Positions 7,867 to 61,690 of a DNA stretch of 64,000 nucleotides are shown piece after piece. Origin of the DNA: Parcubacteria group bacterium. GTDB lineage: Bacteria; Patescibacteriota; Minisyncoccia; UBA6257; Colwellbacteraceae. The stretch lies in NCBI GenBank assembly GCA_041649615.1, contig JBAZMT010000002.1, positions 10,017 through 74,016 on the forward strand. The letters are read 5' to 3'. The translations under genes and the position numbers were made by a program. Below the pieces are notes generated by a model. That model searched no databases and was not told where the DNA came from. It saw nothing but the letters and a program-made list of their open reading frames with translations. Each line of letters begins with the position of its first letter. Position 1 is the stretch's first letter.

Positions 7867-7896
7867 AACATAGAGCGAGGTGTTAAAATTAGGGCA

Positions 7897-9444: not shown

Positions 9445-9508
9445 CCCGAAGCGAAAAAGTTGGTTCAATCCTCATAGAACCTGAAAAAAAGAAAGGAGGG
9501 GACGATTC

Positions 9509-9718: not shown

Positions 9719-9728
9719 CTAAAGAAAC

Positions 9729-9768
9729 AAAGCCTATCTTCTCGCGAAAAGATAGGCTTTTGATTTTT
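9729..9768 (+). terminator. rho-independent terminator
   Basis: AAGCCTATCTT-ctcgcgaa-AAGATAGGCTT followed by TTTGATTTTT. Confidence 0.65.
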
Positions 9769-9801
9769 CGGTGAATAGGAGCTAACTTGAATCGGTAGCT
9801 G

Positions 9802-11049: not shown

Positions 11050-11831
11050 ACGGAAAAGCCATTGCCGAGGAAGTGTATACCCGAATAGGGGACAGAACCG
11101 GAGACGGATTAAAACTCGTTGTCGTCATGGCGGGAGACGATCCGGCAACCGAGTCTTTCGTGGCACAGAAGAAAAAAGCGGCTTTGAGGACGGGGATTAA
11201 TTTTGAAGTAGTTAAATTTTCGGAGGAGGCGGAAACGGAAAAACTGGTGGAATCCGTAAAACGAGCATCCGAGAATCATGAAATAACGGCTGTAATAGTT
11301 CAGCTTCCTTTACCTCAAAAAATAGACAAAGCTCGCGTGCTTAAGGCGATAGAACCAACAAAAGACGTGGATTCGTTAAATGGGGGAAAAATACCGGCAC
11401 CGGCGGCTCAAGTAGTTAAAGAGATACTTAGATATTTGAATAAAGATATAAGCTTGTTTGATTTTGCAGTTGTCGGGTATGGGATTCTGGTGGGAAAACC
11501 GGTTTATGAATTTTTATTGCCTCGCGCGAAATCGGTCCGTATTTTTGAGCGTAGTGACGATTTAGCGGATGTTGCAAAAGCGGACGTGATAATTTCTGGT
11601 ACCGGCGTTCCGGGACTAATTTCGCCTCATATGGTGCGTGACGGGGCGATTGTTATTGATTTCGGTTATGGGATGAAGGACGGAAAAGTCGGGGGAGATT
11701 TTGACCCGCAGATTTCGGATAAAAATATTTTCTATACGCCGACTCCGGGAGGAACGGGGCCGATACTTGTCGCCGAACTTTTTCTAAATATAGTCTTACT
11801 TGGCCGAAGCGGCGATTCGCTCAATCTCTAG
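11037..11831 (+). CDS. folD: bifunctional methylene-THF dehydrogenase/cyclohydrolase
   Basis: FolD pattern ('[11 protein letters not shown]' and others); start overlaps the glyA stop. Confidence 0.9.
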
Positions 11832-12824
11832 GCTCAAGTCTTTCTCAATCTCTCTAAGGAGCGGTTTGTTTTCTCTTAATTTTTCTTTGGAGGCTTCAAT
11901 ACCCACGCCTAGTTTCTCTTCCTTAAACGAATAAGTGTTGCCGCTTTTTTTGACGATACCGTACTTCAAACCGGTGTTAATCAAATCTCCTTCATAAGAG
12001 ATTCCCTCGTTAAACATGATGTCAAACTCGGTAGATCTAAAAGGAGGGGCCACTTTATTTTTGACTACTTTGGCGCGAACTCTGTTTCCGACAACTTCTT
12101 CTCCTTTTTTGATTTGCGCGATGCGTCTTAAATCGACGCGAACGGACGAATAAAATTTGAGCGCTCTTCCTCCGGGAGTGGTAGTCGTTTCTCCATAGCC
12201 CATCATTCCGATTTTTTCTCTTATCTGATTGATGAATACAAGAAGAGTTTTGGACTTGGCGGCAATAGCCGTAATTTTTCTCATAGCCTGGGAAATCATT
12301 CGAGCTTGAAGTCCGACATACTGCGCTCCCATTTCACCCTCAATTTCGGCTCTGGGCGTAAGCGCCGCCACCGAATCAATGATTATGACGTCAATAAGTC
12401 CCGATTTAACGAGGCTTTCCATTATGTTTAAAGCTTCTTCGCCGTTGTCGGGTTGAGAAATTATAAGTTCCTTAATATCAACGCCAATCTTTTTCGCTCT
12501 TTCCGGATCAAGAGAATGCTCGGCGTCAATGAAAGCCGCTTTACCTCCTTTTTTCTGGGCTTCGGCGATTATCTGGAGACCAAGCGTGCTTTTGCCGGAC
12601 ATCTCCGGTCCGAATACTTCAACTATTCTGCCTTTGGGAAAGCCGCCTACGCCAAGCGCAAGATCAAGACTGAACGATCCGGAAGGGATGGACTCAATGT
12701 TTGAGTGCTTAATCTCGCCCAGTTTCATAACCGATTCCTCTCCGAACTTTTCACGGATGGATGCTATGAGCGAGTCCAAATCACTCCCTTCGTCAGGTCT
12801 GTTTTTAGATGTTTTCTTCTCCAT
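11796..12824 (-). CDS. recA: recombinase RecA
   Basis: Walker A 'GPEMSGKST'; near-invariant RecA core across the whole length. Confidence 0.95.
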
Positions 12825-13518
12825 AATTAACAGTTTCGGGATCCACGTTTAAATTTTCCGTTATGTAAAAGACTTTTCTTATGACGGTCGTTTCTCGTCC
12901 CAGAAATCTTCTAACTCTGATTTCAAACGTATTTAGACCGGCATCAAGCGAGACTTCTTTTAGGAAATAACCGTCCGAGCTCACCGGAACGGGCTCTCGG
13001 TTAATTATAATGGAATCTTTGGGATTTATCTTGCCTTCAATCGTAAGTACTTGGCTTCTTGTTTCCAAAAAATCCCTATCTTCCACCTTGGCTGGAAGAT
13101 TTACTTCAATGGACGGAATGCCGACGAAACCGACAAGGAAATACCTGGCACTCGGGATAAGGCCAAGCAGGGTGGCGAGCATGGCAATGGCAACGATAAG
13201 AGCGACAATGACCCAACTCTTTTTTCTGCGAACGACCGCAAAACGGTTTTTCGGGAGGATATCGTCTTTACCCGAAGTCTTAAGTTCGGTTTTGTTGTAA
13301 GCCTCAATTATAGGCTCCTGGTCAATGTCTAAGGTGGTGCAGATTTTTGCGATATAGCCCTTAATGTACGGAGCGGCGGGCATATTGCTCAAGTCGTTCT
13401 CTGCCATGGCAGAGAGGTATCTCTTTGGAATATTTGTCAGTTCGGATAATTTACCGATCGTAAGTCCGTGTTCAGTCGTTATTTCGGATAAAACTTCTCC
13501 TAGACTTTTATCGTTCAT
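12805..13518 (-). CDS. rodZ: RodZ-like cytoskeleton protein (HTH + TM + C-terminal domain)
   Basis: N-terminal XRE-type HTH ('[24 protein letters not shown]'), one TM, C-terminal beta-rich domain. Confidence 0.55.
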
Positions 13519-15592
13519 CGTTTAATTCGTTTTCTTCTCTTTCTGAGTTTAAATAAACCTCTCTCGGTTTCGCTCCATCGCCGGGACCGATGATGCCTTT
13601 GGATTCCATGATATCCAAGAGTCTTGCAGCCCGAGCATAACCGATTTTAAGACGTCTTTGCAATAATGAAGCGCTGGCTTTGCCTGCGTTCGAAACGACT
13701 TCTAAGGCGTCTGGAAACATATCGTCTTCCTCGTCATCGCTTGTGGCGGAACTCAATATTCCCTCAAGCTCGTGCGGGTCCGTGACGGAAAGATCGTTTA
13801 TTTCACCCTCGTTGTTATCAATAATAAATTGAGAAACGGCTTTGATTTCTTCATCGGTAAGATACGATCCTTGGATTCTTCTCGGCTTTGAGAGATCGGA
13901 AGAAACCAAAAGCATGTCTCCGCCTCCCAAAAGTTTTTCCGCTCCGGACGTATCAAGGATAGTGCGCGAGTCCACTTGGCTTGCTACCTGTAAGGCAATT
14001 CTTGTCGTGATATTCGCTTTGATGAGTCCAGTGATTACTTCAACGGACGGGCGCTGCGTGGAGACGATAAGGTGGATTCCGGTCGCGCGCGCCATTTGAG
14101 CGAGTCGCACGATGGAACTTTCAACTTCGCGTCCGTAAGCGGTCATCAAGTCGGCAAGCTCGTCTATTATGATGACGAGATACGGCATCGGGTCATTCTT
14201 GTGTTTGTCGTTAAAGCCTTTAATGTCTCTTACCCCTTCTCGCAGAAGAACTTCATAGCGCCTGTCCATTTCGGATATCGCATAACGAAGAGCCGAAATA
14301 GCTTTTTTACCTTCGGTGATTACGGGGGTGATAAGATGGGGAAGACCGCTATAGACGGAAAGTTCAACGCGTTTCGGATCTATAAAGATGAAGCGGAGAG
14401 TTTCGGGGGAATTCTTGTAAAGAAGAGAAACGATTATGGAGTGAATGGTAACGCTTTTTCCGCTGCCAGTCGCGCCCGCGACAAGCAGGTGAGGCATTTT
14501 CGCGATATTCGGGAAAACCGGCTCTCCCGAAAGTCCTTTACCGAGAGCGAAACCGAGCGTTCCGGCAGAATTGAATTCGGGATAATTTAAGAGGCTTCCA
14601 AGGCGAACGAGCGCCGCGGTTTTGTTGGGAACCTCAATTCCAACTAACGACTTTCCGGGAATCGGAGCTTCAATGCGCAAAGGATGAGCTGCAAGCGCAA
14701 GTGATAGATCTTGATTCAAAGCGGTGATACGTGAAAGTTTTATGCCTTCAGCGGGCTTCAGGGTGTATCTCGTCACTTTCGGACCGATCGTGATTTCTCC
14801 CATTTCCACCGGGATACCGAAGCTATCAAGAGTTCTTTTTATGATATTCGCGTTTGCCCTAAGGTCGCCTACGGTCGGTTTTTCCACGGAAGAATTGAGG
14901 ATATCAAGCGGAGGAGGAACGTAATTTTTGAAGGATAACTTTTTTTCCGTTTTTTGGTTTCCTTTGGCAATGAATTCGGACGCATCACCTGAAGAGGGGG
15001 TATTGTCTGCCGTTTCTGATTTTGGTTTGGACGAACCATTATTTTTTTCCGTTACGGTAACTTCATTTTCACCTTCGCCATTTACGACAAGTTTTTCATT
15101 TTCCGTTTTTCTGATCTTTAGTTTTCCCAGATCAATTTTTATCGGAATATCAATAATGAAAATAAGCCCTATTAAAACGATGGAGGAAGTAAGAACGATA
15201 CCTGCCGGGTGGCCAAACGGCATTTCAACGGCGCCGGCGGCGACACCGAGCCAGCCGCTTTTTCCCGGATAAATAATATCAATCAATCCGAGACTTCCGA
15301 GAACGAAAAGCGAACTTCCGATGATCGTTCGCTTCATTACCCCTCTTCTTCTTCCGAAAAGAAGCAAGACTCCGGCTCCAAGAAGAGTTACGGGAATGAG
15401 ATAGTAACCGATACCGAGCAGAGTCGTACCTGCTTTAAATATGGCTTCACCAACGGGACCGGCCTTGTGAAAGCCGGCGAGCAGTAAAATCAAACCGAGG
15501 CATAAGAAAATTATTGCCCAGATTCCCATAAGGACCTCCGGGCGTATTTTTTCCTTTTCCGGAACGTTCCTTGTTCCAGTTTTTCTTGCCAT
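13508..15592 (-). CDS. ftsK: DNA translocase FtsK/SpoIIIE
   Basis: N-terminal TM helices, Walker A 'GATGSGKS', FtsK motor and gamma-like C-terminus. Confidence 0.9.
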   Translation of the reverse strand: MARKTGTRNVPEKEKIRPEVLMGIWAIIFLCLGLILLLAGFHKAGPVGEAIFKAGTTLLGIGYYLIPVTLLGAGVLLLFGRRRGVMKRTIIGSSLFVLGSLGLIDIIYPGKSGWLGVAAGAVEMPFGHPAGIVLTSSIVLIGLIFIIDIPIKIDLGKLKIRKTENEKLVVNGEGENEVTVTEKNNGSSKPKSETADNTPSSGDASEFIAKGNQKTEKKLSFKNYVPPPLDILNSSVEKPTVGDLRANANIIKRTLDSFGIPVEMGEITIGPKVTRYTLKPAEGIKLSRITALNQDLSLALAAHPLRIEAPIPGKSLVGIEVPNKTAALVRLGSLLNYPEFNSAGTLGFALGKGLSGEPVFPNIAKMPHLLVAGATGSGKSVTIHSIIVSLLYKNSPETLRFIFIDPKRVELSVYSGLPHLITPVITEGKKAISALRYAISEMDRRYEVLLREGVRDIKGFNDKHKNDPMPYLVIIIDELADLMTAYGREVESSIVRLAQMARATGIHLIVSTQRPSVEVITGLIKANITTRIALQVASQVDSRTILDTSGAEKLLGGGDMLLVSSDLSKPRRIQGSYLTDEEIKAVSQFIIDNNEGEINDLSVTDPHELEGILSSATSDDEEDDMFPDALEVVSNAGKASASLLQRRLKIGYARAARLLDIMESKGIIGPGDGAKPREVYLNSEREENELNDER

Positions 15593-37178: not shown

Positions 37179-37412
37179 TTATAGGATATGTTTTTTCGTA
37201 AATGCTCTTCCGGAACCGGACTTAAGATATTTCTCGAAAGAAAACGCCTTATATTTATCTGTGAAAGCGACATAGAACTCTAATTCTACTGGCAATCTAT
37301 TTGTTGTTGCGGGAACATATCCATTTTTATGTCTGCTCAATCGTTCTTCAATATTATCGGTACAGCCTATATAGAATCCGTTTTTACACTTGATGCTGTA
37401 AACATAATACAT
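37179..37412 (-). CDS. GIY-YIG nuclease-domain protein (stand-alone, 77 aa)
   Basis: 'YYVYSIKCKNGFYIGCTDNIEERLSRHKNG' GIY-YIG motif. Confidence 0.75.
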   Translation of the reverse strand: MYYVYSIKCKNGFYIGCTDNIEERLSRHKNGYVPATTNRLPVELEFYVAFTDKYKAFSFEKYLKSGSGRAFTKKHIL

Positions 37413-41295: not shown

Positions 41296-41769
41296 GTGAG
41301 AACGAGATCTTGGACGGAAGAAAATTTGTTAGCAGCTATCCAGACTTCTTATAGTTTGAGACAAGTTATTAAAAAGTTAGGACTAAAAGCTGCAGGAGGT
41401 AATTATTGTCAGATAAAAGATTTTATAAGTAATAGAGGTTTTGATATAAGCCATTTTCGTGGAAAAGGGTGGAGTGCTGGGTTACGAGGAATAGGTAGGC
41501 CTCGCATCTCGTTAGAGGATATCCTGATCAAGGATAGTAGTTTTCAAAGTTTCAAACTTAAAAAAAGATTATTTGCCTCTGGTTTAAAACCAGAATACTG
41601 TGAAGAGTGTGGCTGGAATAAAAGGACAAAAGAAGGTTATTTACCGCTTGAACTAGACCATATTAACGGGGATCATAGGGATAATAGAATAGAAAATCTC
41701 CGTGTGTTATGTCCGAATTGTCATAGTTTAAAACCTACCCACAGAGGTAGAAAATTAAAAGGAATATAA
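41296..41769 (+). CDS. HNH endonuclease (free-standing), GTG start
   Basis: 'LELDHINGDHRDNRIENLRVLCPNCH' HNH motif and 'CEECGW' zinc-finger; paralogue of 3813-4187. Confidence 0.8.
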   Translation: MRTRSWTEENLLAAIQTSYSLRQVIKKLGLKAAGGNYCQIKDFISNRGFDISHFRGKGWSAGLRGIGRPRISLEDILIKDSSFQSFKLKKRLFASGLKPEYCEECGWNKRTKEGYLPLELDHINGDHRDNRIENLRVLCPNCHSLKPTHRGRKLKGI

Positions 41770-51442: not shown

Positions 51443-51500
51443 CGTGCAAAGATTTTTTGAAATTCTGCCGGGGGCGCTTGCTTGGACGACCATAATCGCA

Positions 51501-52949
51501 ATGTTTTTCGTTTCGTGGCTTTTTCCCGTTGAAACGGCGATATTCATCATTCTTTTTGACATCTACTTCTTGCTTCGGACGATTCACTTTGCGATACACC
51601 TGGGTTTCGGGTATCGGGAAATGAAGAGGACGCAAAAAATAAACTGGCTGGAACGAACGAAAGAGTTGCCAGAAAGAAACGGGAAAAAGTGGAGCGATAT
51701 GTATCACCTTGTGATTTTCCCCATGTATAAGGAATCTTTGTCCGTCGTGAGAGAGAGTTTTAATTCGCTTTTGAAAACGAATTATCCGCTAGACCGGTTT
51801 ATCGTGGTTCTTTCCGGCGAAGAAAGAGCGGGAGAAGAGACGAGAGAACTAATAGATAAAATAAAAGAAGAATATGACGGGAAATTTTTCAGACTTTTTA
51901 CGACTATACATCCGAGCGATTTGCCGAACGAGATTCCGGGAAAAGGATCAAACGAAACTTGGGCGGCGAGAAGCGTAAAAGAGAAGGTAATAGATAAAGA
52001 AAATATTCCTTACGAGAATATTTTGGTTTCCACTTTTGACATAGATACGCAAGTTTTTCCCGATTATTTCGGCCGTCTGACTTGCGCTTACTTCACGGCG
52101 GAATATCCAGATAGAAGCAGCTACCAGCCGGTTGTGTTTTTTATAAACAATATTTACGAAGCTCCGATATTTGCGCGGATCGTGGCTTTTTCAACGACTT
52201 TTTGGAACATAATGAGCCAGGTCAGGCCGGAGAAGCTTATAACTTTTTCATCGCACTCAATGCCTTTCAAAGCGCTCGTGGAAATCGGATTTTGGATGAC
52301 AAATCACGTTTCGGAAGATTCCCTTATTTTTTGGCAGTGTTTTTTGCATTACAACGGCGACTGGAGAACGATTCCTTTGAATTATCCCGTATCAATGGAT
52401 GCGAACGTGGCGCCGACTTTTTGGCGAACGATGAAAAACATCTACAAGCAACAAAGAAGATGGGCGTGGGGATGCGAAAACATTCCATACGTTTTCGGAG
52501 GATTCATCAAAAACAAAAAGATAGCCATCCGACAGAAAATATATTGGGTGTATCAACACATAGATATTTATTGGGGATGGGCGACTAACGCCTTGATAAT
52601 TCTTTTGCTCGGCAGGTTGCCTCTTATTCTCGGAGGCGAAAGTTTTAACAAGACGATTCTTTCGTATCAGTTGCCGCAACTTACAAGCACTTTCATGAAC
52701 TTGGCGGTCGTGGGTATCATCACTTCGGCAATAATTTCGGTTGCGATTCTGCCGCCGAAGCCGGAAGGTTTCCGGTGGTATCACTACTTTTTATTTGTCG
52801 TGCAGTGGCTGTTGTTACCGATAAACTTGATAGTATTTAGCGCCATACCGGGACTTGATTCGCAAACGAGAATGATGCTTGGCGGCAAATTCCGGCTTGG
52901 ATTTTGGGTAACACCGAAGGCAAGAAAAGGAGAAAATTTACGAGAGTAA
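51501..52949 (+). CDS. membrane-embedded family-2 glycosyltransferase (processive, cellulose/chitin-synthase-like)
   Basis: N- and C-terminal TM helices; cytosolic domain with 'FDIDTQ' (DxD), 'SEDSLIFW' (ED) and 'KQQRRWAWG' (QxxRW). Start placed after the tRNA at ATG 51501; the GTG at 51444 would abut the tRNA. Confidence 0.65.
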   Translation: MFFVSWLFPVETAIFIILFDIYFLLRTIHFAIHLGFGYREMKRTQKINWLERTKELPERNGKKWSDMYHLVIFPMYKESLSVVRESFNSLLKTNYPLDRFIVVLSGEERAGEETRELIDKIKEEYDGKFFRLFTTIHPSDLPNEIPGKGSNETWAARSVKEKVIDKENIPYENILVSTFDIDTQVFPDYFGRLTCAYFTAEYPDRSSYQPVVFFINNIYEAPIFARIVAFSTTFWNIMSQVRPEKLITFSSHSMPFKALVEIGFWMTNHVSEDSLIFWQCFLHYNGDWRTIPLNYPVSMDANVAPTFWRTMKNIYKQQRRWAWGCENIPYVFGGFIKNKKIAIRQKIYWVYQHIDIYWGWATNALIILLLGRLPLILGGESFNKTILSYQLPQLTSTFMNLAVVGIITSAIISVAILPPKPEGFRWYHYFLFVVQWLLLPINLIVFSAIPGLDSQTRMMLGGKFRLGFWVTPKARKGENLRE

Positions 52950-52975
52950 AACCGGTTTTGTATAATTACTAGGTA

Positions 52976-53503
52976 ATGAGCAATAAGAGGATTTTTATTA
53001 TCGGCGGGATAGTTATTTTCGCTTTTCTCGTTGTGGTCGGGATTCTTTATTATTTTGGCAATAACTCCAGGGGAAAATTGGGCGGAGAATCAACGGGAGA
53101 CGCTTTTCTTGAAGAACTTGAAAACATTCCGGTGCCGGAGATGGGAGAAACGCCCTCAAATGAATCGGTTGCCGTTCCAGTCTCCGTAAGAGAAGCGGTA
53201 GAAGGGGCGAGCGAACAAATCAGATCTTTTCTTGTCAGCGTAGAGAAAGAGAAATTTACGCCGTCCATAGTTTCGGTAAATAAGAACGACACGGTACACA
53301 TTAATTTCACGGCGGTAGACGATGATTATGACGTGGTCGTTCCGGATTACGGGTTAAGTCAGAGGATGAGGAGAGGAGAAACAAAGACAATTGAATTTAG
53401 GGCGGAAACGGAAGGAACACACGTTTATTATTGCGAATCGTGCGGAGGATTGGACTCTCAAGCAAAAGGGTACATCGTGGTTAAATCATCCACACCCAAC
53501 TAG
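52976..53503 (+). CDS. membrane-anchored hypothetical protein with a beta-rich, possibly cupredoxin-like, C-terminal domain
   Basis: N-terminal TM; 'HVYYCESCGG' Cys-containing block. Cu ligands not canonical. Confidence 0.35.
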   Translation: MSNKRIFIIGGIVIFAFLVVVGILYYFGNNSRGKLGGESTGDAFLEELENIPVPEMGETPSNESVAVPVSVREAVEGASEQIRSFLVSVEKEKFTPSIVSVNKNDTVHINFTAVDDDYDVVVPDYGLSQRMRRGETKTIEFRAETEGTHVYYCESCGGLDSQAKGYIVVKSSTPN

Positions 53504-53530
53504 TAAATGAGAATGATATAATTAAATCGG

Positions 53531-54259
53531 ATGAGGAAGATCGCGTTTTTGATTTTCGCCGTTATGGGGATCGCTGTATTTTCTGCGGCGCCGGTTTTGG
53601 CTTGGACCAATCCAGCAGCTAATCCGGCAACGGGAGGAGGAGCGGTAACGGCGGAACAGAATGCTCCAGCAAGTTCCATTCTTATAAAGAACACAGGCGG
53701 AGTTTGGATTAATACGACGACGGATACGAGGCCTCTTGTGATTTCGCGCAATGGAACCGATAGCGAGCGGATAAATATCGGGATAACGGACGGCACAACA
53801 AATTTCTATTACAAAAATGACGAGGCGGTAGGTTCGATCTCCTTTAGAATTCAAAATACGGACACCGAGACGGGAGGAGGGGCGGCGGCGAATGATAATG
53901 TGATAATGACCATCTTGGGCGGCGGAGCAAGTTACGATAACGGTCGCGTCGGTATAGGTACTGCCAGTCCTTCATATAAATTGTCCGTAGCGGGTTGGAT
54001 CCAATCAACTACCGGCGGGTTTAGGTTTCCTGATGGAACAACCCAGACAACGGCTGCCAGCAGTTCTACCGTAAACGCGGCGAATGTTTCTGCGGGAACG
54101 TTCGGGGACAACACGGGAGGAGGTATTTATCTTTTCCCCTCAAATATCGGATTTAAGAGCGGTGTAAGCTCGTTTACGATACGGCCCATAAGCACTACGT
54201 CTATGGGAATTTATGATAGCGCGGGAGCGCAAGTGCTTGTTCTAGACGAAGGAACATAG
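53531..54259 (+). CDS. secreted Gly/Thr/Ser-rich repeat protein (tail-fibre/beta-helix-like motif)
   Basis: Signal peptide; 'GRVGIGTASPSYKLSVAGWI' resembles a motif common in phage tail-fibre-like and adhesin proteins. Recall-based. Confidence 0.45.
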   Translation: MRKIAFLIFAVMGIAVFSAAPVLAWTNPAANPATGGGAVTAEQNAPASSILIKNTGGVWINTTTDTRPLVISRNGTDSERINIGITDGTTNFYYKNDEAVGSISFRIQNTDTETGGGAAANDNVIMTILGGGASYDNGRVGIGTASPSYKLSVAGWIQSTTGGFRFPDGTTQTTAASSSTVNAANVSAGTFGDNTGGGIYLFPSNIGFKSGVSSFTIRPISTTSMGIYDSAGAQVLVLDEGT

Positions 54260-54335
54260 TTTTGTCTGTTGCCGTTTTTCAGAACCGACGTTCTCTGTCT
54301 CCAGCGAGAAGAGCCGTCTACCTCTCGGGCTTTTG

Positions 54336-54358
54336 CCCGATTTTTTAAAAAAATCGGG
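54336..54358. terminator. perfect AT-loop palindrome (probable terminator)
   Basis: CCCGATTTTTT-A-AAAAAATCGGG. Confidence 0.4.
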
Positions 54359-54446: not shown

Positions 54447-55193
54447 TTGATGGCTTTTGTTTGGGACGAGTTGAAGGAACTAAAAAGAATTTTTATTCCG
54501 TGGGTTTATATATTCGGGGTTTTGGGAATAGGATTTTTTTCGGTACCTGTTTTAGAAGGTAAAACGATCGCGGCGGAGGCATTCTTGCAAATGAAAAGCA
54601 TGCTCGTGCCGAAGGAAGTGGAATTTATCGTTACCGAGCCGGTTTCGGCGTTCGTGGTGCAAGTGGGCATCGCGCTTATGATCTCTTTTATTCTCACTTC
54701 GCCTTTTTTCTTTTACAGGCTAGCCAAATACATTTCGGGGGCGCTTTACGACAAAGAAAGAAGAACGTTACGAAAATTGTTTTTACCGGCGGCATTTCTT
54801 TTCGCGGCGGGGGCGGTATTCGGCTATTTCATAATCTTGCCGCCCACTTTTAAAATCCTTTACGAATATGCGGGGAATATCGGAGCAAAACCCTTCTTTT
54901 CCGTATCCGATTTTGCCGTTTTTACGCTTGGATTCACCTTCGCCTGCGGGATAATGTTTCTTCTGCCCGTGGCGATGGGAATCCTGAATTTCGTAGGGGT
55001 TACTAATAGAGCCATGTGGAAGAAAAACTGGCGTTACGCTTTCTTAATTTTTCTAATCGTGTCTGCTATAATTACGCCAGATGGAAGCGGGGTTACGATG
55101 ATAATGCTTTCATTGCCCTTGACCGGACTTTATTTTGTAGGCTCGGTCGCGGGTGGTAACGGTCGAAAACAAACTAAAAAGGATAAAAAATAA
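54447..55193 (+). CDS. tatC: twin-arginine translocase subunit TatC
   Basis: Six TM helices; 'ITPDGSG' TatC motif. Confidence 0.85.
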   Translation: MMAFVWDELKELKRIFIPWVYIFGVLGIGFFSVPVLEGKTIAAEAFLQMKSMLVPKEVEFIVTEPVSAFVVQVGIALMISFILTSPFFFYRLAKYISGALYDKERRTLRKLFLPAAFLFAAGAVFGYFIILPPTFKILYEYAGNIGAKPFFSVSDFAVFTLGFTFACGIMFLLPVAMGILNFVGVTNRAMWKKNWRYAFLIFLIVSAIITPDGSGVTMIMLSLPLTGLYFVGSVAGGNGRKQTKKDKK

Positions 55194-55194
55194 A

Positions 55195-55374
55195 ATGGGT
55201 TTCACAGAACTAGCGATAATAGTTGTTCTTGCAATAATTGTTTTCTTTGGCGGCAAAAAAATAGCCGAGCTTGCGAGGTCGGCCGGTCGCGCTTCGGCTG
55301 AATTCAAGAAAGGAAAGCTAGAGGCGGAGAAGGAAGTCAAAGACTTGATGAAAGACAATGAAGGCAAAAAATAA
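55195..55374 (+). CDS. tatA: twin-arginine translocase subunit TatA/E
   Basis: 'MGFTELAIIVVLAIIVFFGGKKIAELARSAGRASAEFKKG' TatA TM helix plus amphipathic helix. Confidence 0.8.
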   Translation: MGFTELAIIVVLAIIVFFGGKKIAELARSAGRASAEFKKGKLEAEKEVKDLMKDNEGKK

Positions 55375-55615
55375 GACAAACGAAAAAAGAAGAAAATTTC
55401 TGAAGCTCTTGGCTTTTGGCGGAATTGCGCTCGTAGCGGCAAAACTTTTCGGGAATAAACTAACGGCTTTAGCGGCTCCCGTTTCCGCTTTGCCGAAGAA
55501 AAAAGAAAGCCAAAAAACGTTCGGGGACAAAGTAAATATGATTGAGGACGACAAGCAAGTGGCTTTCATTGATAAGAGAACGGGAGAAGAAATATTTATT
55601 TTAGAAAAAGACTAA
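55358..55615 (+). CDS. small protein with a twin-arginine (Tat) signal peptide
   Basis: 'EKRRKFLKLLAFGGIALVAAKLFG' matches the Tat RRxFLK consensus followed by a hydrophobic core. Overlaps the tatA 3' end and is translationally coupled to the next gene. Confidence 0.5.
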   Translation: MKAKNKTNEKRRKFLKLLAFGGIALVAAKLFGNKLTALAAPVSALPKKKESQKTFGDKVNMIEDDKQVAFIDKRTGEEIFILEKD

Positions 55616-55616
55616 A

Positions 55617-55904
55617 ATGGCAATTAAAATATCCAAAAACAGGCTGGATATGGACAGCAAACCGATCAAGAATTCGGGACGCATAGACGCGACCGAAATT
55701 CACGGGATAGTTTATTACACGGACGTTCATTTTGAGGAAAAAGAATGCGCCGTTTGCGGAGCGCGTTTTAAGCCCGGAGACGGAATTGCGCTTTATGTCA
55801 GGAGAGTAACCGCGAAAGGAACCGATCTGATCCCGGCCCACATAGATTGTTTTTGCTGCGAGACAAAGAAAGGTCAATCAAAAAAGAAAATAAAAAAAAG
55901 ATAA
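55617..55904 (+). CDS. small Cys-containing hypothetical protein (zinc-ribbon-like)
   Basis: 'CAVCG...CFCC'; its stop overlaps the next start (TAATG). Confidence 0.4.
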   Translation: MAIKISKNRLDMDSKPIKNSGRIDATEIHGIVYYTDVHFEEKECAVCGARFKPGDGIALYVRRVTAKGTDLIPAHIDCFCCETKKGQSKKKIKKR

Positions 55905-56179
55905 TGGCGTTTGAATGGAAATTAATAGGGGACGATACGGGCGACGCAAAAACGGAAACTTCACAACCAGCGCAATCAACGCCTGTTCCACAGCCGGTGA
56001 CTTCGCAATCGGAGAATCCAAAGCCTGCGCAGTCAGAAGCGGAAACGCCTGCTAACGGACCGGCTTGTCCGAACCATAACGCATCGGAGAATACGGGTTA
56101 TCACAACGTTCATGACTCGGGAGTTTATAACTCGTATGATACGGGAGCGAACGTAGATGAGAATTCGGTAGTTGGTTAA
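55904..56179 (+). CDS. MAFxW-family protein A (91 aa): candidate precursor/substrate of the radical-SAM enzymes
   Basis: Starts 'MAFEWKLIGDDTGDAKTE'; Pro/Gln/Ser/Asn-rich; shares its N-terminal motif with the next two genes. Confidence 0.5.
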   Translation: MAFEWKLIGDDTGDAKTETSQPAQSTPVPQPVTSQSENPKPAQSEAETPANGPACPNHNASENTGYHNVHDSGVYNSYDTGANVDENSVVG

Positions 56180-56203
56180 TTTTTTTAAAAAAAAGAAAGA
56201 TAA

Positions 56204-57124
56204 ATGGCGTTTACTTGGAGCTCGCTTAGCGCGGGAAGCCCAATTGAAGACGAAGACTATAACGAGGTTAAAACAAACCTCGATTCGGTGTATTCGGCTT
56301 TAGGAATTTCCAGGCCAAGCTGCTCGGGGCCAGGATGGACGGTTTTGCCCGTATCAAGCGGTTCGGCGATAACTTCGGCTCAATCACAGCAGTTAAGGGA
56401 CGTAACGGACTATGCCGATACGAATTGGTGTAAGACGCACAACACGGCGCATTGTAGCGGAGTTAATTCTACTGAAAATGTAACTCATAATAGCGGTAAT
56501 AATGCAACAGTTAATGCGACGGCCAATACAACCGTTAGATCAACCCACAATTCTGGTCATTATACCTCTTACAACGCAACGGTGGATGCGTCGGATTATG
56601 TGAATGATTTCATGACTAACTGTTACCATTACATTGCTGCTGATTCTGCGGCAAAGGTAAATGATTATGTGACTGTTCAGACTATGCACTTCTCCGCTTT
56701 TCAATCTGGCCTATGTGGACAGGAGAACACTACACATAATACCACTGTTCGAGCAGCGCATTGGGGTCCTTTTAATGGAACGGTTAATTTAACAGTAAGA
56801 GCAGCGCACAATGCCGATTACGACAGTCCCGACAACATAGGAGCGCAGGCGACAAATAATACCACCCATTACGGTTCAAACTGGAGTCCTTATAACAACG
56901 GCGTTAATACGTCTGTAAGGAGCGCTTATTACGTTGATAACGACGCGCCCGATTACATAAGCGTAAGAACAACGCATAATACCACTCATTTAAGCGCGCA
57001 TAATGGTACTGTTCGAGCCGCCTATTGGGGGCCGTATAACGGAACGGTATATACGACGCACAAGGGAACACATCACTCAAATTATGACGGGACGGATAAC
57101 AGTACGGTGAGAAGCGTTTATTAA
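56204..57124 (+). CDS. MAFxW-family repeat protein B (306 aa): Asn/Thr/His/Tyr-rich, candidate radical-SAM substrate
   Basis: Leader-like N-terminus 'MAFTWSSLSAGSPIEDEDYNEVKTNLDSVYSALGI'. Repeated modules 'NTTH', 'TVRAAHWGPFNGTV', 'NNTTHYGSNWSPYNNGVNTSVRSAYYVDNDAPDYIS'. No signal peptide. Confidence 0.55.
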   Translation: MAFTWSSLSAGSPIEDEDYNEVKTNLDSVYSALGISRPSCSGPGWTVLPVSSGSAITSAQSQQLRDVTDYADTNWCKTHNTAHCSGVNSTENVTHNSGNNATVNATANTTVRSTHNSGHYTSYNATVDASDYVNDFMTNCYHYIAADSAAKVNDYVTVQTMHFSAFQSGLCGQENTTHNTTVRAAHWGPFNGTVNLTVRAAHNADYDSPDNIGAQATNNTTHYGSNWSPYNNGVNTSVRSAYYVDNDAPDYISVRTTHNTTHLSAHNGTVRAAYWGPYNGTVYTTHKGTHHSNYDGTDNSTVRSVY

Positions 57125-57136
57125 TATAGAAAACAA

Positions 57137-57937
57137 ATGGCTTTTACTTGGCAACAAAATATAGGAGTGGGTTCTTCCATTGATGCGGCGGATATTTTAG
57201 AAATTCGCACGAACGTTAATACGGTAGATTCTAAAAAATGTGTAACTCACAACGCGGGTGTTAATACAACTTATAATTCTGGGGTAGACAGCACTGATAG
57301 AGCGAGTCATTACTCAGGGCAGAACACAACGGTACGGTCGACTTATAATAGCAGTCAAAACAGTGCAAATAATGTAACTGTTTATACAGGACAAGACTCT
57401 GGTTATCATGGCACTGCCGATGCTGAATTTTGGGGACAGCACCACACAAGTGAAGAAGTGGGAGCGAAAACTTATGTTTATTCAGGCTTTAATACAGGTG
57501 TTTATACAAACCAAGATGCAGGGGTATTCACGGGCAATAATAGTGCTGTTCGAGCTACTCATAATACTACACACGACGGGAGCGATTATGATACGCAATA
57601 TTCTTCGCAGAATACTACCCATAACGGCGCACACTGGAGTCCGTATAACGGATACGTATATACGACAGTAAGGGCAAATTATTATGTGGATAATGATACG
57701 CCCGACTATATATCACACAACACAAACAACAATACCACTCACTACGGTTCAAACTGGAGCCCATATAATTCAAGCGTTAATACGACGGTTAGAGCAACTC
57801 ATAATGCGGGCGTATTGAGCATTCATAATAGCAATCACGACGGAGGAGACTATACGAGCCAGTATTCTACTCATAATCCGAACTATAAAACCGCTCATTG
57901 GGGACCGTATAATGCAACGCACAATCGCAATTATTAG
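57137..57937 (+). CDS. MAFxW-family repeat protein C (266 aa): paralogue of B
   Basis: 'MAFTWQQNIGVGSSIDAADILEIRTNVNTVDSKK' plus the same modules ('NTTHYGSNWSPYNSSVNTTVRATH', 'YYVDNDTPDYIS', 'HWGPYNAT'). Confidence 0.55.
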   Translation: MAFTWQQNIGVGSSIDAADILEIRTNVNTVDSKKCVTHNAGVNTTYNSGVDSTDRASHYSGQNTTVRSTYNSSQNSANNVTVYTGQDSGYHGTADAEFWGQHHTSEEVGAKTYVYSGFNTGVYTNQDAGVFTGNNSAVRATHNTTHDGSDYDTQYSSQNTTHNGAHWSPYNGYVYTTVRANYYVDNDTPDYISHNTNNNTTHYGSNWSPYNSSVNTTVRATHNAGVLSIHNSNHDGGDYTSQYSTHNPNYKTAHWGPYNATHNRNY

Positions 57938-58113
57938 CCTAGAAACTAGAAACCAGTATTTATACGGTAAACTAGAAAACGAATTTGGGTTCTGATTTTT
58001 ACGGGCCTATCTTGATTAGGATTATGGCGGAGACGGACCCTCCTACGCTAAAACTACGGAAGGGTGGCGACTGTCAAGTTGATATAGAGGAACCCCTTAA
58101 CTAAAATAGGAGG

Positions 58114-59403
58114 ATGAGATTTGAGGCGGCCGAACTTTTAACGACCGGACAATGCCCGTTGAGCTGCAAGTACTGTTACATTCCAAAGGTACCGGCGATG
58201 CAGGCGGTGCATGCCGATATCGTTAAAGGATTAGAAGACGGAACGTTTTTAGAAAATTTAAAAAAAATAGTGGGTGATAATCTGACCCACCTTAGTTTTT
58301 GGGGAACGGAACCGGCGCTCACTCTGCCTATTTTAAAAAACAAACTGGACGATATAGAAAGACTTTTTCCAAAGGCGAAAGAGATAGGTTTTTCGACTTC
58401 AATGGTGATGCCCGAGCCGATCATTGACTTTGCAAAGGAGCTTGAAAAAAGAGGACTGAAATTGAATTTGCAGGTTTCGCTCGACGGGCCGGAATTTATC
58501 GTGGACGAGAACCGGTTTCCCGGGGCGGCCAAGAAAATCCCCGAGGCGATACTTCACTTCGTGAAAGAAATGCAAGGGACGAACGTTTATATTGATTTGC
58601 ATTGGAAACCGACGCTCACGATTGAAAATATCCAAGCGATGACCGAAAAACCGGAGAAAATTGACGAATATATTAATTTTTTCCGTGATTTGGAGGCGGA
58701 AATAAAAAAAATAAATACGTCTTCAAACGTCATAATGAGGGAGGGAGGATATATTCCCACGCTTGCCGTACCGGGGAAATTTACATCGGCGGACGGAAAA
58801 TTATTTGCTAAATATTTAAGAACCCTACACAGCAAGGGTTACGAGAGCGCTTATTCGCATCGACTAACAAGAATAATAAACTATTCGGACGAATTAGGAC
58901 CAAAGAGAAGAATGTTTACCTGTTCGGGGGGAGATTCAAACGTGGGAGTAGGCGACAGTTTGCATATTTGCCACCGAACTTTTTACTTAAACGATCCGCG
59001 TTATGTGGGGGCGGTATTGGAAAAGGAAGGAATAGAGAATTGGGATGTTTCCATCTTTAACCAAGGACTCGTAGACCATTTGAGAGAGTGGTATATGCCT
59101 TCGGTTGACGATGAACTGAAACTCCAGAACTTTGATTATATTTTAAGAGGGTATCATGACTTCTGGGCGATTAAACTTTCTTCAATCGAGGTGATGACAA
59201 AGGAGCTTGCTCTCGCGGGGCAAGCCGACCCATTGTTTTTGGAAAACAAAGATTATATGAGTTTATTTACGCTTTTTATGGCAACCGCGCATTCGTGCCC
59301 GATGGAGGCGGTTTTAAACACGGGGACGCTTCAACTTACGCCCGTGTCGCTCATAAGAATGTTCGGGAACGGAGCCTTCAGGGAAATAATAAAAATCGTA
59401 TGA
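58114..59403 (+). CDS. radical SAM enzyme (CxxxCxxC), paralogue 1
   Basis: AGGAGG SD; 'GQCPLSCKYCY' rSAM cluster motif; C-terminal Cys-containing 'FTCSGGD...SLHICHRT'. Confidence 0.8.
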   Translation: MRFEAAELLTTGQCPLSCKYCYIPKVPAMQAVHADIVKGLEDGTFLENLKKIVGDNLTHLSFWGTEPALTLPILKNKLDDIERLFPKAKEIGFSTSMVMPEPIIDFAKELEKRGLKLNLQVSLDGPEFIVDENRFPGAAKKIPEAILHFVKEMQGTNVYIDLHWKPTLTIENIQAMTEKPEKIDEYINFFRDLEAEIKKINTSSNVIMREGGYIPTLAVPGKFTSADGKLFAKYLRTLHSKGYESAYSHRLTRIINYSDELGPKRRMFTCSGGDSNVGVGDSLHICHRTFYLNDPRYVGAVLEKEGIENWDVSIFNQGLVDHLREWYMPSVDDELKLQNFDYILRGYHDFWAIKLSSIEVMTKELALAGQADPLFLENKDYMSLFTLFMATAHSCPMEAVLNTGTLQLTPVSLIRMFGNGAFREIIKIV

Positions 59404-60722
59404 CATACCAGGAAGAAAACAATCAGTTAGTAGAATCGTTCTTGAATCACAGCTTCTTCAAGGGATTTAAACATCCCGAGCTTAAAGAAAGCGAGAATTT
59501 TAAATCGTTAGAGCTTTTCTTTAACGACAAATGCAACTTAAAGTGTAAATACTGTTATCTGCAACGGTTTGGAGAAAAACTGTATCCGCACGAACATCAA
59601 GACGGGGAAACACTTCTTAAAAATTTAAAAATGCTTTTGGATTGGTTGAACGAGAAAGAATACGTGCCGGAACACATAGAAATATTCTCGGGAGAAGTAT
59701 TTATCCAAGACGCAGGTTGGAAGGCGATAAATATGATCCTTGACAACTATAAGGACAAAGAAAAAAAGCCGGAATACATAGTGGTGCCAACAAACTTTAC
59801 TTTTATACTCTCGTCTGACCTCACAAAAAAGGTAGAGGATTTACTTACTAAGGCCAAAGAAGTTGGTCTACCTATAGGACTTTCCTCATCATTTGACGGG
59901 AAATACTGCGAAGTAAACAGACCTTTTAAGAGCGGGAAAGAGATAAGGGACGACGCTTATTACGACAAAGTTTTTGAATTTTCCAAAAAATGGGGAACGG
60001 GGTTTCATCCGATGGTCTACTCGGAGCATATTGAAGACTGGCAGAAGAATTGGTTGTGGTTCCAAGAAAATTTTTCAAAGCATCGGCTGCCGTGGAAAAA
60101 TATCTATCTTTTAGAAGTTCGGAACGTGGAATGGACCGAAAGGCAGATGGCGGATTTGGGGAAGTTTGTGGAATTTTTGATCCATTGGACTTTTGACAAT
60201 CCTTGCCATGGAGACGTAGGCACGTATTTAGATTTTCTCTTTGATGGAGGATACAACATTTTAAGGAACCCTTTGACGACCATCGGGAGAGGAATCGGAT
60301 GTTCCATTCAATCAAATTTGGTTTTGAGACTCGGGGATCTGTCTCTTGTGCCGTGCCATAGAACGTCTTATTCGCCCTTTAACTTCGGCAAATTTAAGGT
60401 AGAAAACGGCAAAATAACGAGTTTTGAATCAAAGAACGTAGATATGATGGTCGCCATATATTCTTTTGACGCGAGTACCCAGCCTTATTGCGAACAGTGC
60501 CTTCTGAAGACTTTGTGTTCGTTCGGGTGTTTGGGAAGCCAATTAGAAGTTACCGGGGACCCGTTTACGCCTATTCCTTCCGTTTGCCAGATGGAGCACA
60601 TAAAAGTGGCTTCAATGATTAAGGCCTATAAAGAACTCGGCATGTTAGAGCCCGTACTTGCGAGAGTGGGTCAAGGGAAAGCAGACGTACTCCAAGAACT
60701 AGCGAAAATGCTCGGATACTGA
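59400..60722 (+). CDS. radical SAM enzyme with a SPASM-like C-terminal Cys cluster, paralogue 2
   Basis: 'KCNLKCKYCY' rSAM motif; 'SLVPCHRT' shared with paralogue 1; C-terminal 'YCEQCLLKTLCSFGCLG...SVCQMEH' auxiliary-cluster pattern. Its ATG overlaps the upstream stop (ATGA). Confidence 0.85.
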   Translation: MTYQEENNQLVESFLNHSFFKGFKHPELKESENFKSLELFFNDKCNLKCKYCYLQRFGEKLYPHEHQDGETLLKNLKMLLDWLNEKEYVPEHIEIFSGEVFIQDAGWKAINMILDNYKDKEKKPEYIVVPTNFTFILSSDLTKKVEDLLTKAKEVGLPIGLSSSFDGKYCEVNRPFKSGKEIRDDAYYDKVFEFSKKWGTGFHPMVYSEHIEDWQKNWLWFQENFSKHRLPWKNIYLLEVRNVEWTERQMADLGKFVEFLIHWTFDNPCHGDVGTYLDFLFDGGYNILRNPLTTIGRGIGCSIQSNLVLRLGDLSLVPCHRTSYSPFNFGKFKVENGKITSFESKNVDMMVAIYSFDASTQPYCEQCLLKTLCSFGCLGSQLEVTGDPFTPIPSVCQMEHIKVASMIKAYKELGMLEPVLARVGQGKADVLQELAKMLGY

Positions 60723-60783: not shown

Positions 60784-61353
60784 ATGGAAAACCAAATAAC
60801 TAACACTCTGCAAGCCAGCAAATCTCAAGTTGAGCGTATTTTAAATTACGAGGATGATCTAAAGCGCATATTCGCTTCCCAGCATGTCAGCAATATAAAA
60901 AGAACCCTCAATTTTATGACGGAACAACTTACAACCGTTATAAACGGGGGAAACGTTGTGCCGACTTCCGAAGAGATGAATATGGCAGCGGAAATGGCGC
61001 GCGTTTTTGCGAACATTGCGCTTGAGAAACCGATTGAGCCGATATTTCGAGACCTTTCGGCGAGTTATCTTTTGATCATTCACAACTGGAACGAGGCTAC
61101 GATCAAAAATCATAATATTTCCACAAACGTCAAAATGACGAACGGAATCGTGAAGGCGCAACTAACGCTTATGGATACGATAGACGTACTCCAAAAAACG
61201 CTTGAAAAAATAAGAAAAACTCACCTATATGAACCGCCGGCGTTTAATTTAAGTAGATCGTATCTGGATAACTTGAAGAAAGCCATTGAAGAAAAAGGCC
61301 CGGACGCCTTAGTCCCAAAAAAGCCGGATAATGTCTCAAACCAAGAAAGCTAA
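60784..61353 (+). CDS. hypothetical protein (189 aa)
   Basis: Clean ORF downstream of the radical-SAM pair; no family recognised. Confidence 0.4.
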   Translation: MENQITNTLQASKSQVERILNYEDDLKRIFASQHVSNIKRTLNFMTEQLTTVINGGNVVPTSEEMNMAAEMARVFANIALEKPIEPIFRDLSASYLLIIHNWNEATIKNHNISTNVKMTNGIVKAQLTLMDTIDVLQKTLEKIRKTHLYEPPAFNLSRSYLDNLKKAIEEKGPDALVPKKPDNVSNQES

Positions 61354-61690
61354 AAAAGACCCGAGAATAGATTCGTTCTCCAGAGCTCTTAATTTATCCA
61401 TTTTTGAAAATTTTTCGGCGCAGGTGAGAGGAAAAGTGGATACGATAAGTAAAAACGCGATTACCGTAAAGGAAGGGAAGGACAAAGTAAAACTTTTGTT
61501 TGACAAGGATTTTCCGCCCGCCGTTATAAAAATAACAATTGGCGGCAAGACCGGGAAAAAAGCCGAGGATATTACTCTTGCGGCCGTTAAGACGGGAAAG
61601 AAGGTGTCGGCCAACGTCGCGTTGCTTCCATCCGGAGAATGGAAGGCCTTTGGAATTGCCATGAGAGAGGAGGTAAAATCCTCAAAGTGA
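61331..61690 (+). CDS. hypothetical Lys-rich protein (119 aa)
   Basis: ORF overlapping its neighbours; weak. Confidence 0.35.
   Translation: MSQTKKAKKDPRIDSFSRALNLSIFENFSAQVRGKVDTISKNAITVKEGKDKVKLLFDKDFPPAVIKITIGGKTGKKAEDITLAAVKTGKKVSANVALLPSGEWKAFGIAMREEVKSSK

Follow-up and report, generated by a model that had tools for sequence, protein, structure and literature searches.

A conserved and apparently undescribed cassette of two radical-SAM enzymes and octad-repeat proteins in Parcubacteria and viral contigs

We analysed a 64-kb stretch of a Parcubacteria chromosome (contig JBAZMT010000002.1; the whole stretch is called the window here) that carries genes for two radical S-adenosylmethionine (radical-SAM) enzymes, rSAM1 and rSAM2, downstream of three genes for repeat proteins (A, B and C) that begin with a MAFxW-type motif. 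Upstream of the repeat proteins lie tatC and tatA of the twin-arginine translocation (Tat) system, a gene for a twin-arginine mini-protein and a small gene, p95, and downstream of rSAM2 lie p189 and p119. The list of open reading frames (ORFs) shows that the series from tatC to p119 is unbroken on the + strand and that 2-oxoacid:ferredoxin oxidoreductase genes come after p119. An earlier sequence-only reading of the window had reported the three MAFxW genes, the Tat genes and two radical-SAM genes joined by an ATGA overlap; all were found where that reading had placed them, and the overlap was confirmed in the sequence (ATCGTATGACATAC). In addition, the stop codon of p95 and the ATG of protein A share one base (TAATG).

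Related loci, coded here with L and a number, were taken from species-representative genomes, IMG/VR and specific contigs, and 37 of them were non-redundant and had an intact rSAM2 orthologue (30-82% identity). rSAM1 adjoins rSAM2 in 35 of the 37 loci, and in 24 at least two genes with the MAFxW-type N-terminal unit are found within 6 kb, so the two kinds of gene do co-occur in other genomes. The cassette genes of one locus (L043) are permuted. The cassette is carried by Parcubacteria chromosomes, by contigs that were binned to DPANN and other archaea, and by about 36 viral contigs of IMG/VR. Judged by these sequence comparisons, the cassette is a conserved unit, and its gene order recurs in dozens of unrelated contigs. 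All 703 homologues of rSAM2 in a database of 5.8 billion clusters have names that are either "hypothetical" or generic, and the NCBI label of both rSAM2 and p189 in a Parcubacteria metagenome-assembled genome (MAG) is "hypothetical protein". Records of cultured phages held no close relative of rSAM2 (only a Campylobacter phage radical-SAM protein with 25% identity) and no match to the N-terminal leader. In the full-text literature (subscription journals were outside its scope), we found no paper on radical-SAM enzymes acting on tail-fibre or tail-spike proteins and none on the cassette in Patescibacteria, and no paper that names HxsB or HxsC, enzymes of the His-Xaa-Ser (HXS) system discussed below, treats the rSAM1-rSAM2-p189 trio. 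The analysis bears out the proposal that the window holds a real, conserved and apparently undescribed candidate cassette for radical-SAM protein modification.

Both enzymes carry the CxxxCxxC motif (C14/C18/C21 in rSAM1 and C45/C49/C52 in rSAM2) and share the sequence C-H-R-T (residues 286-289 and 319-322, respectively), as had been read from the sequence. The multi-Cys SPASM pattern noticed in the second enzyme is the full seven-Cys pattern (C301, C319, C364, C367, C373, C377 and C396), and all ten of these Cys residues of rSAM2 are invariant in 37/37 orthologues. In rSAM1, 31-33 of 33 orthologues keep each of C14/C18/C21 and C270/C286/C395, the latter triad being listed as invariant in 33/33, and the pattern C270-x15-C286-HRT with C395 is twitch-like. 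The two enzymes had also been called paralogues, which holds at the level of the superfamily only, as BLASTP aligned just 52 N-terminal residues (E = 2e-5). The Pfam Radical_SAM model scored 28.5 bits for rSAM1 and 23.7 bits for rSAM2, both below the cut-off of 29.5, and the SPASM domain model TIGR04085 reached 21 bits against a cut-off of 27. The maturase models of NCBIfam gave 14-54 bits overall against cut-offs of 300-850; the top model was PapB (36 bits for rSAM1 and 54 bits for rSAM2, cut-off 340), and every other model was lower, including QhpD, nif11, SCIFF, HxsB, GrrM and others. Neither enzyme attained the curated cut-off of any named equivalog, among them PapB, CteB/SCIFF, QhpD, anSME and PqqE. 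The AlphaFold2 (AF2) model of rSAM2 had a predicted local distance difference test score (pLDDT) of 87.6, and its top Foldseek matches were CteB, anSME, TigE and ChlB (template modelling score of about 0.55, E from 4e-10 to 3e-7); a profile search of PDB sequences found TigE and CteB. These matches by family and by structure are to peptide and protein maturases and to no housekeeping family, which places both enzymes by sequence, and rSAM2 also by fold, among the radical-SAM maturases with SPASM or twitch domains.

Several viral loci were fragmented under the standard code. In L046, L048/L083, L051, L053-L055 and L058-L061, the rSAM1 and rSAM2 orthologues are split into several ORFs under translation table 11, which suggests stop-codon recoding or else sequencing errors.

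A leader-like N-terminus had been described as common to all three repeat proteins. This stands for B and C; protein A has only MAFEW and a Cys junction, and its conservation is limited to close relatives (L109, L111 and L117). A hidden Markov model (HMM) of the N-terminal unit describes about 30 residues with the pattern x[FY]xW, 8-12 residues, I, and then NE[IL][KR]xNxD. With this HMM two gene types were distinguished, the B-type with two tandem units and the C-type with one, and C-type partners adjoin B-type genes in most loci. An exhaustive search of 1.84 billion proteins with the N-terminal 85 amino acids of protein B returned 106 cluster representatives. Two of them, P0210 (1931 aa) and P0219 (955 aa), were rejected as spurious repeat or low-complexity matches; in the 104 genuine ones, which are proteins of 105-330 aa, the match is always N-terminal. 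The junction that follows the units (D-Y-x3-N-x2-C) keeps its Cys in 103 of the 104 representatives, and C-type proteins have the equivalent junction D(D)NxxC. A word-indexed homologue search with protein C gave zero matches, although genes for close homologues have been called on contigs in JGI and ENA. Repeat proteins with a strong bias can escape such a search, and we treated the empty result as an artefact of composition or of the word index.

The same type of N-terminal unit (WTDDPL...IK..HI.ELR) was also seen before wholly different Cys-repeat cores (CNCNYCTCDCNYCTC, CTCDCAYAC, CSGTCSGGC and CECECTCTCTC) at L073 9143-9691, L084 13619-14296, L088 11112-11909 and L097 9427-10029. These genes adjoin one to four other genes of the radical-SAM/SPASM kind on viral contigs, near tail-fibre-type genes, and the loci look like a wider class of virus-borne modules of radical-SAM enzymes and repeat proteins.

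The regions behind the junction are hypervariable in length. When the window (56204-57937) was compared with L109 (5048-6648), L111 (3723-6592) and L117 (3925-6598), whose maturases are 68-82% identical, the B proteins were 283, 306, 463 and 499 aa long and the C proteins 242, 266, 422 and 454 aa; differences of up to two-fold among such close relatives suggest that repeat number turns over quickly. Where rSAM2 identity is about 80%, the lengths already range over 283, 306 and 499 aa for B and 242, 266 and 454 aa for C. Across the family the cores share a composition rich in D/S/T/N/Y/G/V/A/H, and in almost all members the autocorrelation peaks highest at lags of 8 and 16 residues. For B and C of the window, the periodicity exceeded that of shuffled sequences with z = 2.9-6.4, lag 16 giving about 5-6 (6.4 in B). 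Each repeat is an octad with one hydrophobic position. The consensus in the lineage of the window is Y-N-[TS]-T-V-[RNY]-S-[TA]; examples are QNSTVRSA and YNTTVYSG from this lineage, KDTTVDSG and DDVTVNAD from L043, and GEDVGANT from L115. There is no tandem repeat at the DNA level beneath the protein repeats of the window, which suggests that the periodicity is maintained at the protein level and rules out recent DNA slippage as the origin of the repeats.

What the sequence-only reading had taken for loose triplets of an aromatic residue, any residue and N/T is in fact this regular 8/16-residue periodicity. [HYWF]-x-[ST] triplets number 18 in B and 20 in C against about 11-12 expected, and aromatic-x-[ST] is enriched about 1.7-2x in many members, while several others have nearly no aromatic residues (e.g. 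L043 and L115). By sequence, then, the aromatic-x-S/T excess appears to be a by-product of the octad register. The resemblance to triceptides proposed on the basis of these triplets does not hold: the maturase models GrrM/OscB (24.9 bits against 310), AmcB (19.7 against 425) and YhhB (14 against 445) score far below their cut-offs, ChlB is only a general fold match, and the variability of the motif likewise led us to rule out this reading.

N-x-S/T sequons are enriched 2-2.5x in the cores of the window lineage and absent from many other family members. N-glycosylation sequons were dropped as a unifying feature, the enrichment being confined to some lineages. rSAM1 of L114 carries a GT4-type glycosyltransferase fused at its C-terminal end (5488-7980, 830 aa), and GT4 homologues lie just downstream of p189 in L034 (11891-12877) and L049 (12088-13050). 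Together with the sequon enrichment, the fusion and these neighbours suggest that the repeat proteins may also be glycosylated as an add-on. In L116, a 355-aa ORF (9853-10920) comes after p189.

The core of the B-type protein of L043 passes Pfam thresholds for two families of the gp5/VgrG beta-helix, with 52.8 bits for DUF2345, which is the C-terminal region of VgrG (cut-off 30.7), and 41.2 bits for Gp5_trimer_C (cut-off 30.9). The B and C proteins of L115 are just under the beta-helix threshold, with 25.5 and 22.1 bits. When the cores of the window were compared with the L043 core against composition-preserving shuffles, the z scores were 7.1 for protein B and 8.7 for protein C. These results suggest that the cores most likely fold as gp5/VgrG-like beta-helices, the window proteins being assigned by transfer within the family and by their periodicity, and that the octad array is probably trimeric.

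On viral contigs, the cassette comes after tail-fibre or baseplate genes. Besides LamG tail proteins, L040 encodes a major head protein and one that resembles a baseplate protein; in L037, the protein encoded directly upstream is a PHROG tail fibre of 1655 aa, and queuosine genes are also present; and L007 has a tail sheath and an amidase. With the p95 HMM, free-standing copies were found in the cassettes of the Tat type. In viral loci L004, L037, L040 and L115, the p95 domain instead forms the C-terminus of the tail-fibre or baseplate protein directly 5' of the B-type gene. Since this domain ends tail proteins immediately upstream of the B-type gene, its position suggests a docking point for the B and C proteins.

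In six Parcubacteria loci (L109, L111, L114, L116, L117 and L118), the cassette comes after TatC, TatA and the mini-protein with the twin-arginine motif, which confirms that the Tat genes seen beside the cassette are conserved neighbours. The flanks of L109, L111 and L117 are those of the window, and the flanks of L114, L116 and L118 are of three other kinds. Because the Tat genes are kept among differing flanks, the link appears to be functional, and we ruled out chance neighbourhood. The 85-aa mini-protein matched two TAT-signal models weakly, with 13.4 (cut-off 16.7) and 19 (cut-off 48), both below threshold; its equivalents with (R/S)RR(K/N)FLK come after TatA in all six loci.

The AF2 model of p189 is a helical bundle (pLDDT 82) with no informative structural match, and p189 had no family match in any library searched. 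p119 has homologues in L001, L109-L112 and L114 and likewise had no family matches.

Table 1. Positions of the cassette and of the genes that accompany it in the window
Feature	Position	Strand	Description
tatC	54447-55193	+	Homologue in relatives matches Pfam TatC
tatA	55153-55374	+	Homologue in relatives matches Pfam TatA_B_E; real start probably internal, as TatA of relatives has 60-72 aa
Twin-arginine mini-protein	55358-55615	+	85 aa; RRKFLK and hydrophobic stretch; conserved C-terminal beta-hairpin-like tail ...GEEIFILEKD
p95	55617-55904	+	95 aa; CxxC...HxxC, zinc-ribbon-like; putative docking adaptor
Protein A	55904-56179	+	91 aa; MAFEW, Pro/Gln-rich linker, Cys junction CPNHN, about five octads
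Protein B	56204-57124	+	306 aa; two tandem N-terminal units, invariant junction Cys (DYADTNWC), octad-repeat core
Protein C	57137-57937	+	266 aa; one N-terminal unit, junction DSKKCVTHN, octad-repeat core
Spacer	57938-58113		176 nt; sole sizeable intergenic gap of the cassette
rSAM1	58114-59403	+	429 aa; radical-SAM enzyme with twitch-like auxiliary Cys triad
rSAM2	59400-60722	+	440 aa counted from internal ATG; radical-SAM enzyme with full 7-Cys SPASM domain
p189	60784-61353	+	189 aa; all-helical accessory protein; invariant C-terminal motif Y-E-P-P-x-F-x-L-S-R-x-Y-L
p119	61331-61690	+	Small protein; restricted to the Parcubacteria chromosomal version

The positions of these features are given in Table 1. 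A terminator-like hairpin lies 5' of tatC (54325-54340), and the spacer contains a promoter-like site (58079-58107, 10/12 matches) of a kind whose frequency in the region equals chance. Scans of the region for promoters and terminators were at chance level throughout and do not delimit the operon. The rest of the 64 kb is an ordinary Parcubacteria chromosome with aminoacyl-tRNA synthetases, RecA, IF-2 and 13 tRNAs. A prophage was ruled out by these housekeeping surroundings and by the absence of other viral genes from the 64 kb. Just 5' of tatC (51444-54259) are genes for a 501-aa GT2 glycosyltransferase, a cupredoxin-like protein with a membrane anchor (175 aa) and a 242-aa protein with a signal peptide. 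The window shares this order with its closest relatives (L109, L111 and L117) and not with L114, L116 and L118. The C-terminal motif of the 242-aa protein (GRVGIGTASPSYKLSVAG...FPDGTTQ) may be of a type that occurs in tail-fibre-like proteins. Two small ORFs among the housekeeping genes may be selfish elements: one at 37179-37412 begins with MYYVYSIKCKNGFYIGCT and by eye resembles a GIY-YIG motif, and the other, at 41296-41769 (157 aa), has by eye the look of a homing endonuclease or HNH-type protein.

Some of the related loci connect the trio to the HXS system, which consists of HxsD-HxsB-HxsC-HxsA (models TIGR03976-03979 by Haft; Li et al., Nat Commun 2026, PMC13128918). In this antiphage system, HxsB, HxsC and HxsD mature the periplasmic HxS-repeat effector HxsA, which gains +8 Da on SHRSS and is processed at its N-terminus, and 99.7% of HXS systems are in Pseudomonadota (PMC13128918). 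Upstream of rSAM1-rSAM2-p189 in L113, L002 and L006 we found HxsD (TIGR03976, 59 bits, cut-off 50), an HxsD-related protein (65, cut-off 41) and, as a third radical-SAM enzyme, a genuine HxsB (507 bits, cut-off 370). The same three loci encode a protein whose HxsA3-like N-terminus (44 bits, below the cut-off of 65) carries a signal or membrane segment and is followed by a core of the same composition as in the rest of the family. HxsB and HxsD occur solely with the HxsA3-type N-terminus, and rSAM1, rSAM2 and p189 track the core type, which suggests that the trio acts on the junction or the core. Explicit His-x-Ser runs are present in partner proteins of L002, L052 and L114 (C-type in the last). 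In L052, a 158-kb viral contig, a 246-aa protein (5677-6417) has long His-x-Ser runs at both ends (SHSSHSDHSSHNSHSNH...), and at least three more ORFs with CxxxCxxC, read from the sequence, flank the trio in the stretch 6430-14445 (7466-8494, 11916-13187 and 13180-14445). In the window, the HxsB model TIGR03978 (cut-off 370) gave 27 bits for rSAM1 and 19.6 bits for rSAM2, and the HxsC model TIGR03977 was not among the matches listed at E <= 0.1 for either enzyme (for rSAM2, the best 25 of 29, which leaves room for a very weak match at most). In addition, HxsD (TIGR03976/PF27806) had no match in p189, p119, p95 or the 85-aa protein. The earlier remark that the architecture was not recognised from any described family calls for a qualification, since the cassette is related to the HXS system.

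We propose that the two radical-SAM enzymes modify beta-helical spike or fibre proteins in the cytoplasm, and that the products are placed at the virus tail tip via p95 and, in Parcubacteria, exported by Tat. We give this reading a probability of about 0.55. The window would then hold the cellular, Parcubacteria version of a mobile maturation cassette with rSAM1, rSAM2 and p189 as its conserved core. The substrates would be the adjacent MAFxW proteins, on which both Fe-S enzymes would install covalent modifications that lock the assembly or make it harder. The likeliest modification would be a thioether-type link from the Cys of the junction, given that PapB and CteB are the closest models and folds for the enzymes. 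TvgB and TigE form cyclopropylglycine on TVGG and TIGSVS repeats, and their iterative action on tandem motifs is established (PMC9062424); by analogy, iterative modification of the octads at the T-V position could take the place of the thioether or be added to it. In viruses, the product would belong to the tail tip and be docked on the tail-fibre or baseplate protein through that protein's p95-type zinc-ribbon domain. In Parcubacteria, where p95 is free-standing, the folded and modified assembly would leave through TatC/TatA, probably piggy-backing on the twin-arginine mini-protein, and would form a surface structure. A bolder version holds that viruses of uncultivated hosts and the episymbiotic Parcubacteria, possibly also DPANN archaea, share a cassette for a beta-helical puncturing or adhesion spike with chains stapled covalently by the two radical-SAM enzymes. 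Cells would have domesticated this tail-tip device of viruses; the cross-linked spike, folded beforehand, would leave through Tat by riding on the twin-arginine mini-protein and a free-standing docking domain, and would be used at the surface, for example to attach to or pierce a host cell. We regard this version as tentative.

A number of observations weigh against the proposal. Proteins A, B and C of the window have no signal peptide and no twin-arginine signal either, so that any export would be a matter of hitch-hiking. The same three proteins have no Pfam match at threshold, including to Gp5_trimer_C and DUF2345, and for this reason their assignment to the beta-helices rests on family membership and periodicity. 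BLAST placed a p189 homologue directly 3' of rSAM2 in 21/37 loci, a count that reflects incomplete detection, as further copies were recognised by eye from the C-terminal sequence PP(A/S/I)(F/Y)x(L/I)(S/N)(R/K)xYL. Viral labels in IMG/VR and the taxonomy of MAGs are fallible for a single contig; for example, the "Paceibacterota" locus L005 is on the same contig as the viral locus L038. Finally, the occurrence of similar cores under a different N-terminus in L002, L006 and L113 suggests that rSAM1 and rSAM2 may recognise something other than the N-terminal units, which may serve docking as much as enzyme recognition.

The link to HXS loci allows for an envelope effector instead of a spike. The radical-SAM pair could turn repeat proteins rich in [H/Y/N/D]-x-[S/T] into exported effectors of the cell envelope that, for instance, block the entry of foreign DNA as E. 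coli HxsA does; the viral copies would serve superinfection exclusion or counter-defence, and the octad array would be a multivalent binding surface. We consider this unlikely, yet it has the published HXS mechanism (PMC13128918), the HXS genes directly upstream of the trio in three loci, the His-x-Ser runs of the partner proteins and the Tat linkage in Parcubacteria in its favour. However, the scores of rSAM1 and rSAM2 on the HxsB model are low and HxsC is not among the listed matches, the window has neither HxsD nor a signal peptide or peptidoglycan-binding domain on its repeat proteins, and PADLOC yielded only weak viperin noise. Moreover, the viral genes sit in tail-fibre modules beside the docking domain of a tail protein, which suits a part of the virion better.

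The classical RiPP (peptide made on ribosomes and modified after translation) logic of the sequence-only reading fared less well. In its multi-core form, the N-terminal units would be leaders and the repeats would be cores that are modified, cleaved and released, as in the poly-cyclopropylglycine system TvgA/TvgB and the multi-core triceptides. A conserved N-terminus before hypervariable repeats, whose length varies two-fold among close relatives, would be expected of such precursors, as would the reuse of the unit before different Cys-repeat cores near other radical-SAM enzymes (L073, L084, L088 and L097). The enzymes also resemble RiPP maturases, and the T-V/I dipeptide of the octads recalls the TVGG repeats that TvgB cyclopropanates (PMC9062424). 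Nevertheless, no leader peptidase or dedicated exporter is conserved in the cassette in any locus inspected, TatCA alone being present and in the Parcubacteria versions only. A RiPP recognition element (RRE; a PqqD-like winged helix) had no Pfam or NCBIfam match in the cassette: rSAM1 starts at its cluster motif, the N-terminus of rSAM2 has merely two short helices in the AF2 model, and p189 is all-helical, unlike a PqqD-type RRE. The precursor-like genes encode 91-306 aa in the window and up to 499 aa in relatives, beyond the size of a short precursor, their cores are octad repeats, the core of one family member reaching gp5/VgrG thresholds, and the viral copies lie in tail-fibre modules within virion structural operons. 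The MAFxW "precursors" are thus probably not small RiPP precursors, and we hold the multi-core explanation to be more doubtful still than the envelope effector. It is very improbable that the enzymes act on another target altogether (e.g. nucleic acids, cofactors or sugars), with their adjacency to the repeat proteins reflecting co-inheritance in a mobile module. Modification of the repeat proteins is an inference, phages carry other radical-SAM genes (e.g. the queuosine pathway in L037), and a GT4 enzyme is fused to rSAM1 or adjoins the cassette in L114, L034 and L049; all of this would fit another target. On the other hand, adjacency and orientation are kept over bacterial, archaeal and viral contigs with otherwise unrelated neighbours, both enzymes fall in the peptide- and protein-modifying SPASM/twitch group by sequence, rSAM2 also by fold, and the partner proteins vary together with the enzymes.

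Nearly all known radical-SAM chemistry on peptides concerns small natural products, and maturation of whole proteins (anSME, QhpD and, in 2026, HXS) is just emerging. Here, a large unannotated family couples two radical-SAM enzymes to spike-like repeat proteins in viruses and in reduced-genome bacteria of the candidate phyla radiation (CPR), as well as in DPANN-binned contigs, lineages whose cell-surface biology is largely uncharted. If the proteins are modified, the result would be a new protein cross-link chemistry on a beta-helix scaffold; cytoplasmic modification of spike or fibre proteins would account for the conserved Tat-linked operon of Parcubacteria and extend the HXS principle far beyond Proteobacteria. 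Should the stapled-spike version be true, it would be the first case in which radical-SAM enzymes modify a structural protein of virions, and it would add a new class to the cargoes of Tat. At 98-150 aa, some members of the family would be short and tractable substrates, for example the C-type protein of L031 (98 aa) and the B-type protein of L003 (105 aa). Radical-SAM-dependent maturation of repeat proteins is already known, with HXS the closest case, and the cassette would be an undescribed variant of it; the chance is considerable that the biology, a stapled spike of a virus or an episymbiont, is new in kind.

Several known systems invite comparison. Serine-rich-repeat adhesins are surface proteins with Ser/Thr-rich repeats that are glycosylated in the cytoplasm by GtfA/GtfB and exported by a dedicated, linked accessory Sec system. 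The GT4 enzymes fused or adjacent to the cassette in three loci recall this arrangement, whereas the modifiers here are radical-SAM enzymes, the linked export route is Tat rather than accessory Sec, and there is no sequence relationship. anSME is likewise a SPASM enzyme that modifies a full-length protein and is the second-best structural match of rSAM2; it differs in that the sulfatase_rSAM model reaches 20 bits against 349 and that the substrates here are without the C/S-x-P-x-R motif. With the gp5/VgrG spike, the repeat proteins share the eight-residue periodicity, one inward-type hydrophobic residue per octad and, in viral genomes, the position of their genes at the tail tip. They differ from it in their unusual composition (N/T/S/Y/H/D) and in the division of the spike over two or three small genes with N-terminal units of their own; neither gp5 nor VgrG is known to need radical-SAM enzymes.

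The repeat-modifying RiPP maturases (TvgB/TigE, the thioether enzymes PapB and CteB, and the cyclophane enzymes GrrM/OscB and ChlB) have the superfamily and fold in common with rSAM1 and rSAM2, and the invariant Cys and the T-V dipeptide would be plausible target sites for such chemistry here. In contrast to those systems, the enzymes score 10-50 bits against 300-850, an RRE, a peptidase and an exporter are all absent, the substrates have the size of folded proteins, and two different maturases occur with a helical partner. HXS also combines two adjacent enzymes of the radical-SAM/SPASM type and a small non-enzymatic partner with a repeat-protein gene. Its substrate, too, is a protein and not a short peptide, it ends outside the cytoplasm (as would that of the window), and its repeats are rich in His/x/Ser-type triplets; furthermore, three CPR loci have HxsB, HxsD and an HxsA3-like protein physically joined to the trio. 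The window departs from HXS in that it has no HxsD, that p189 is unrelated to HxsD, that MAFxW units stand in place of a signal peptide, and that long octad arrays without a peptidoglycan-binding domain replace five HxS repeats; the cassette is also common in viral tail modules and in CPR/DPANN contigs. Taken together, these comparisons of sequence and gene content indicate that the cassette is built on the same plan as HXS without being a member of it, and that HXS is its closest known system.

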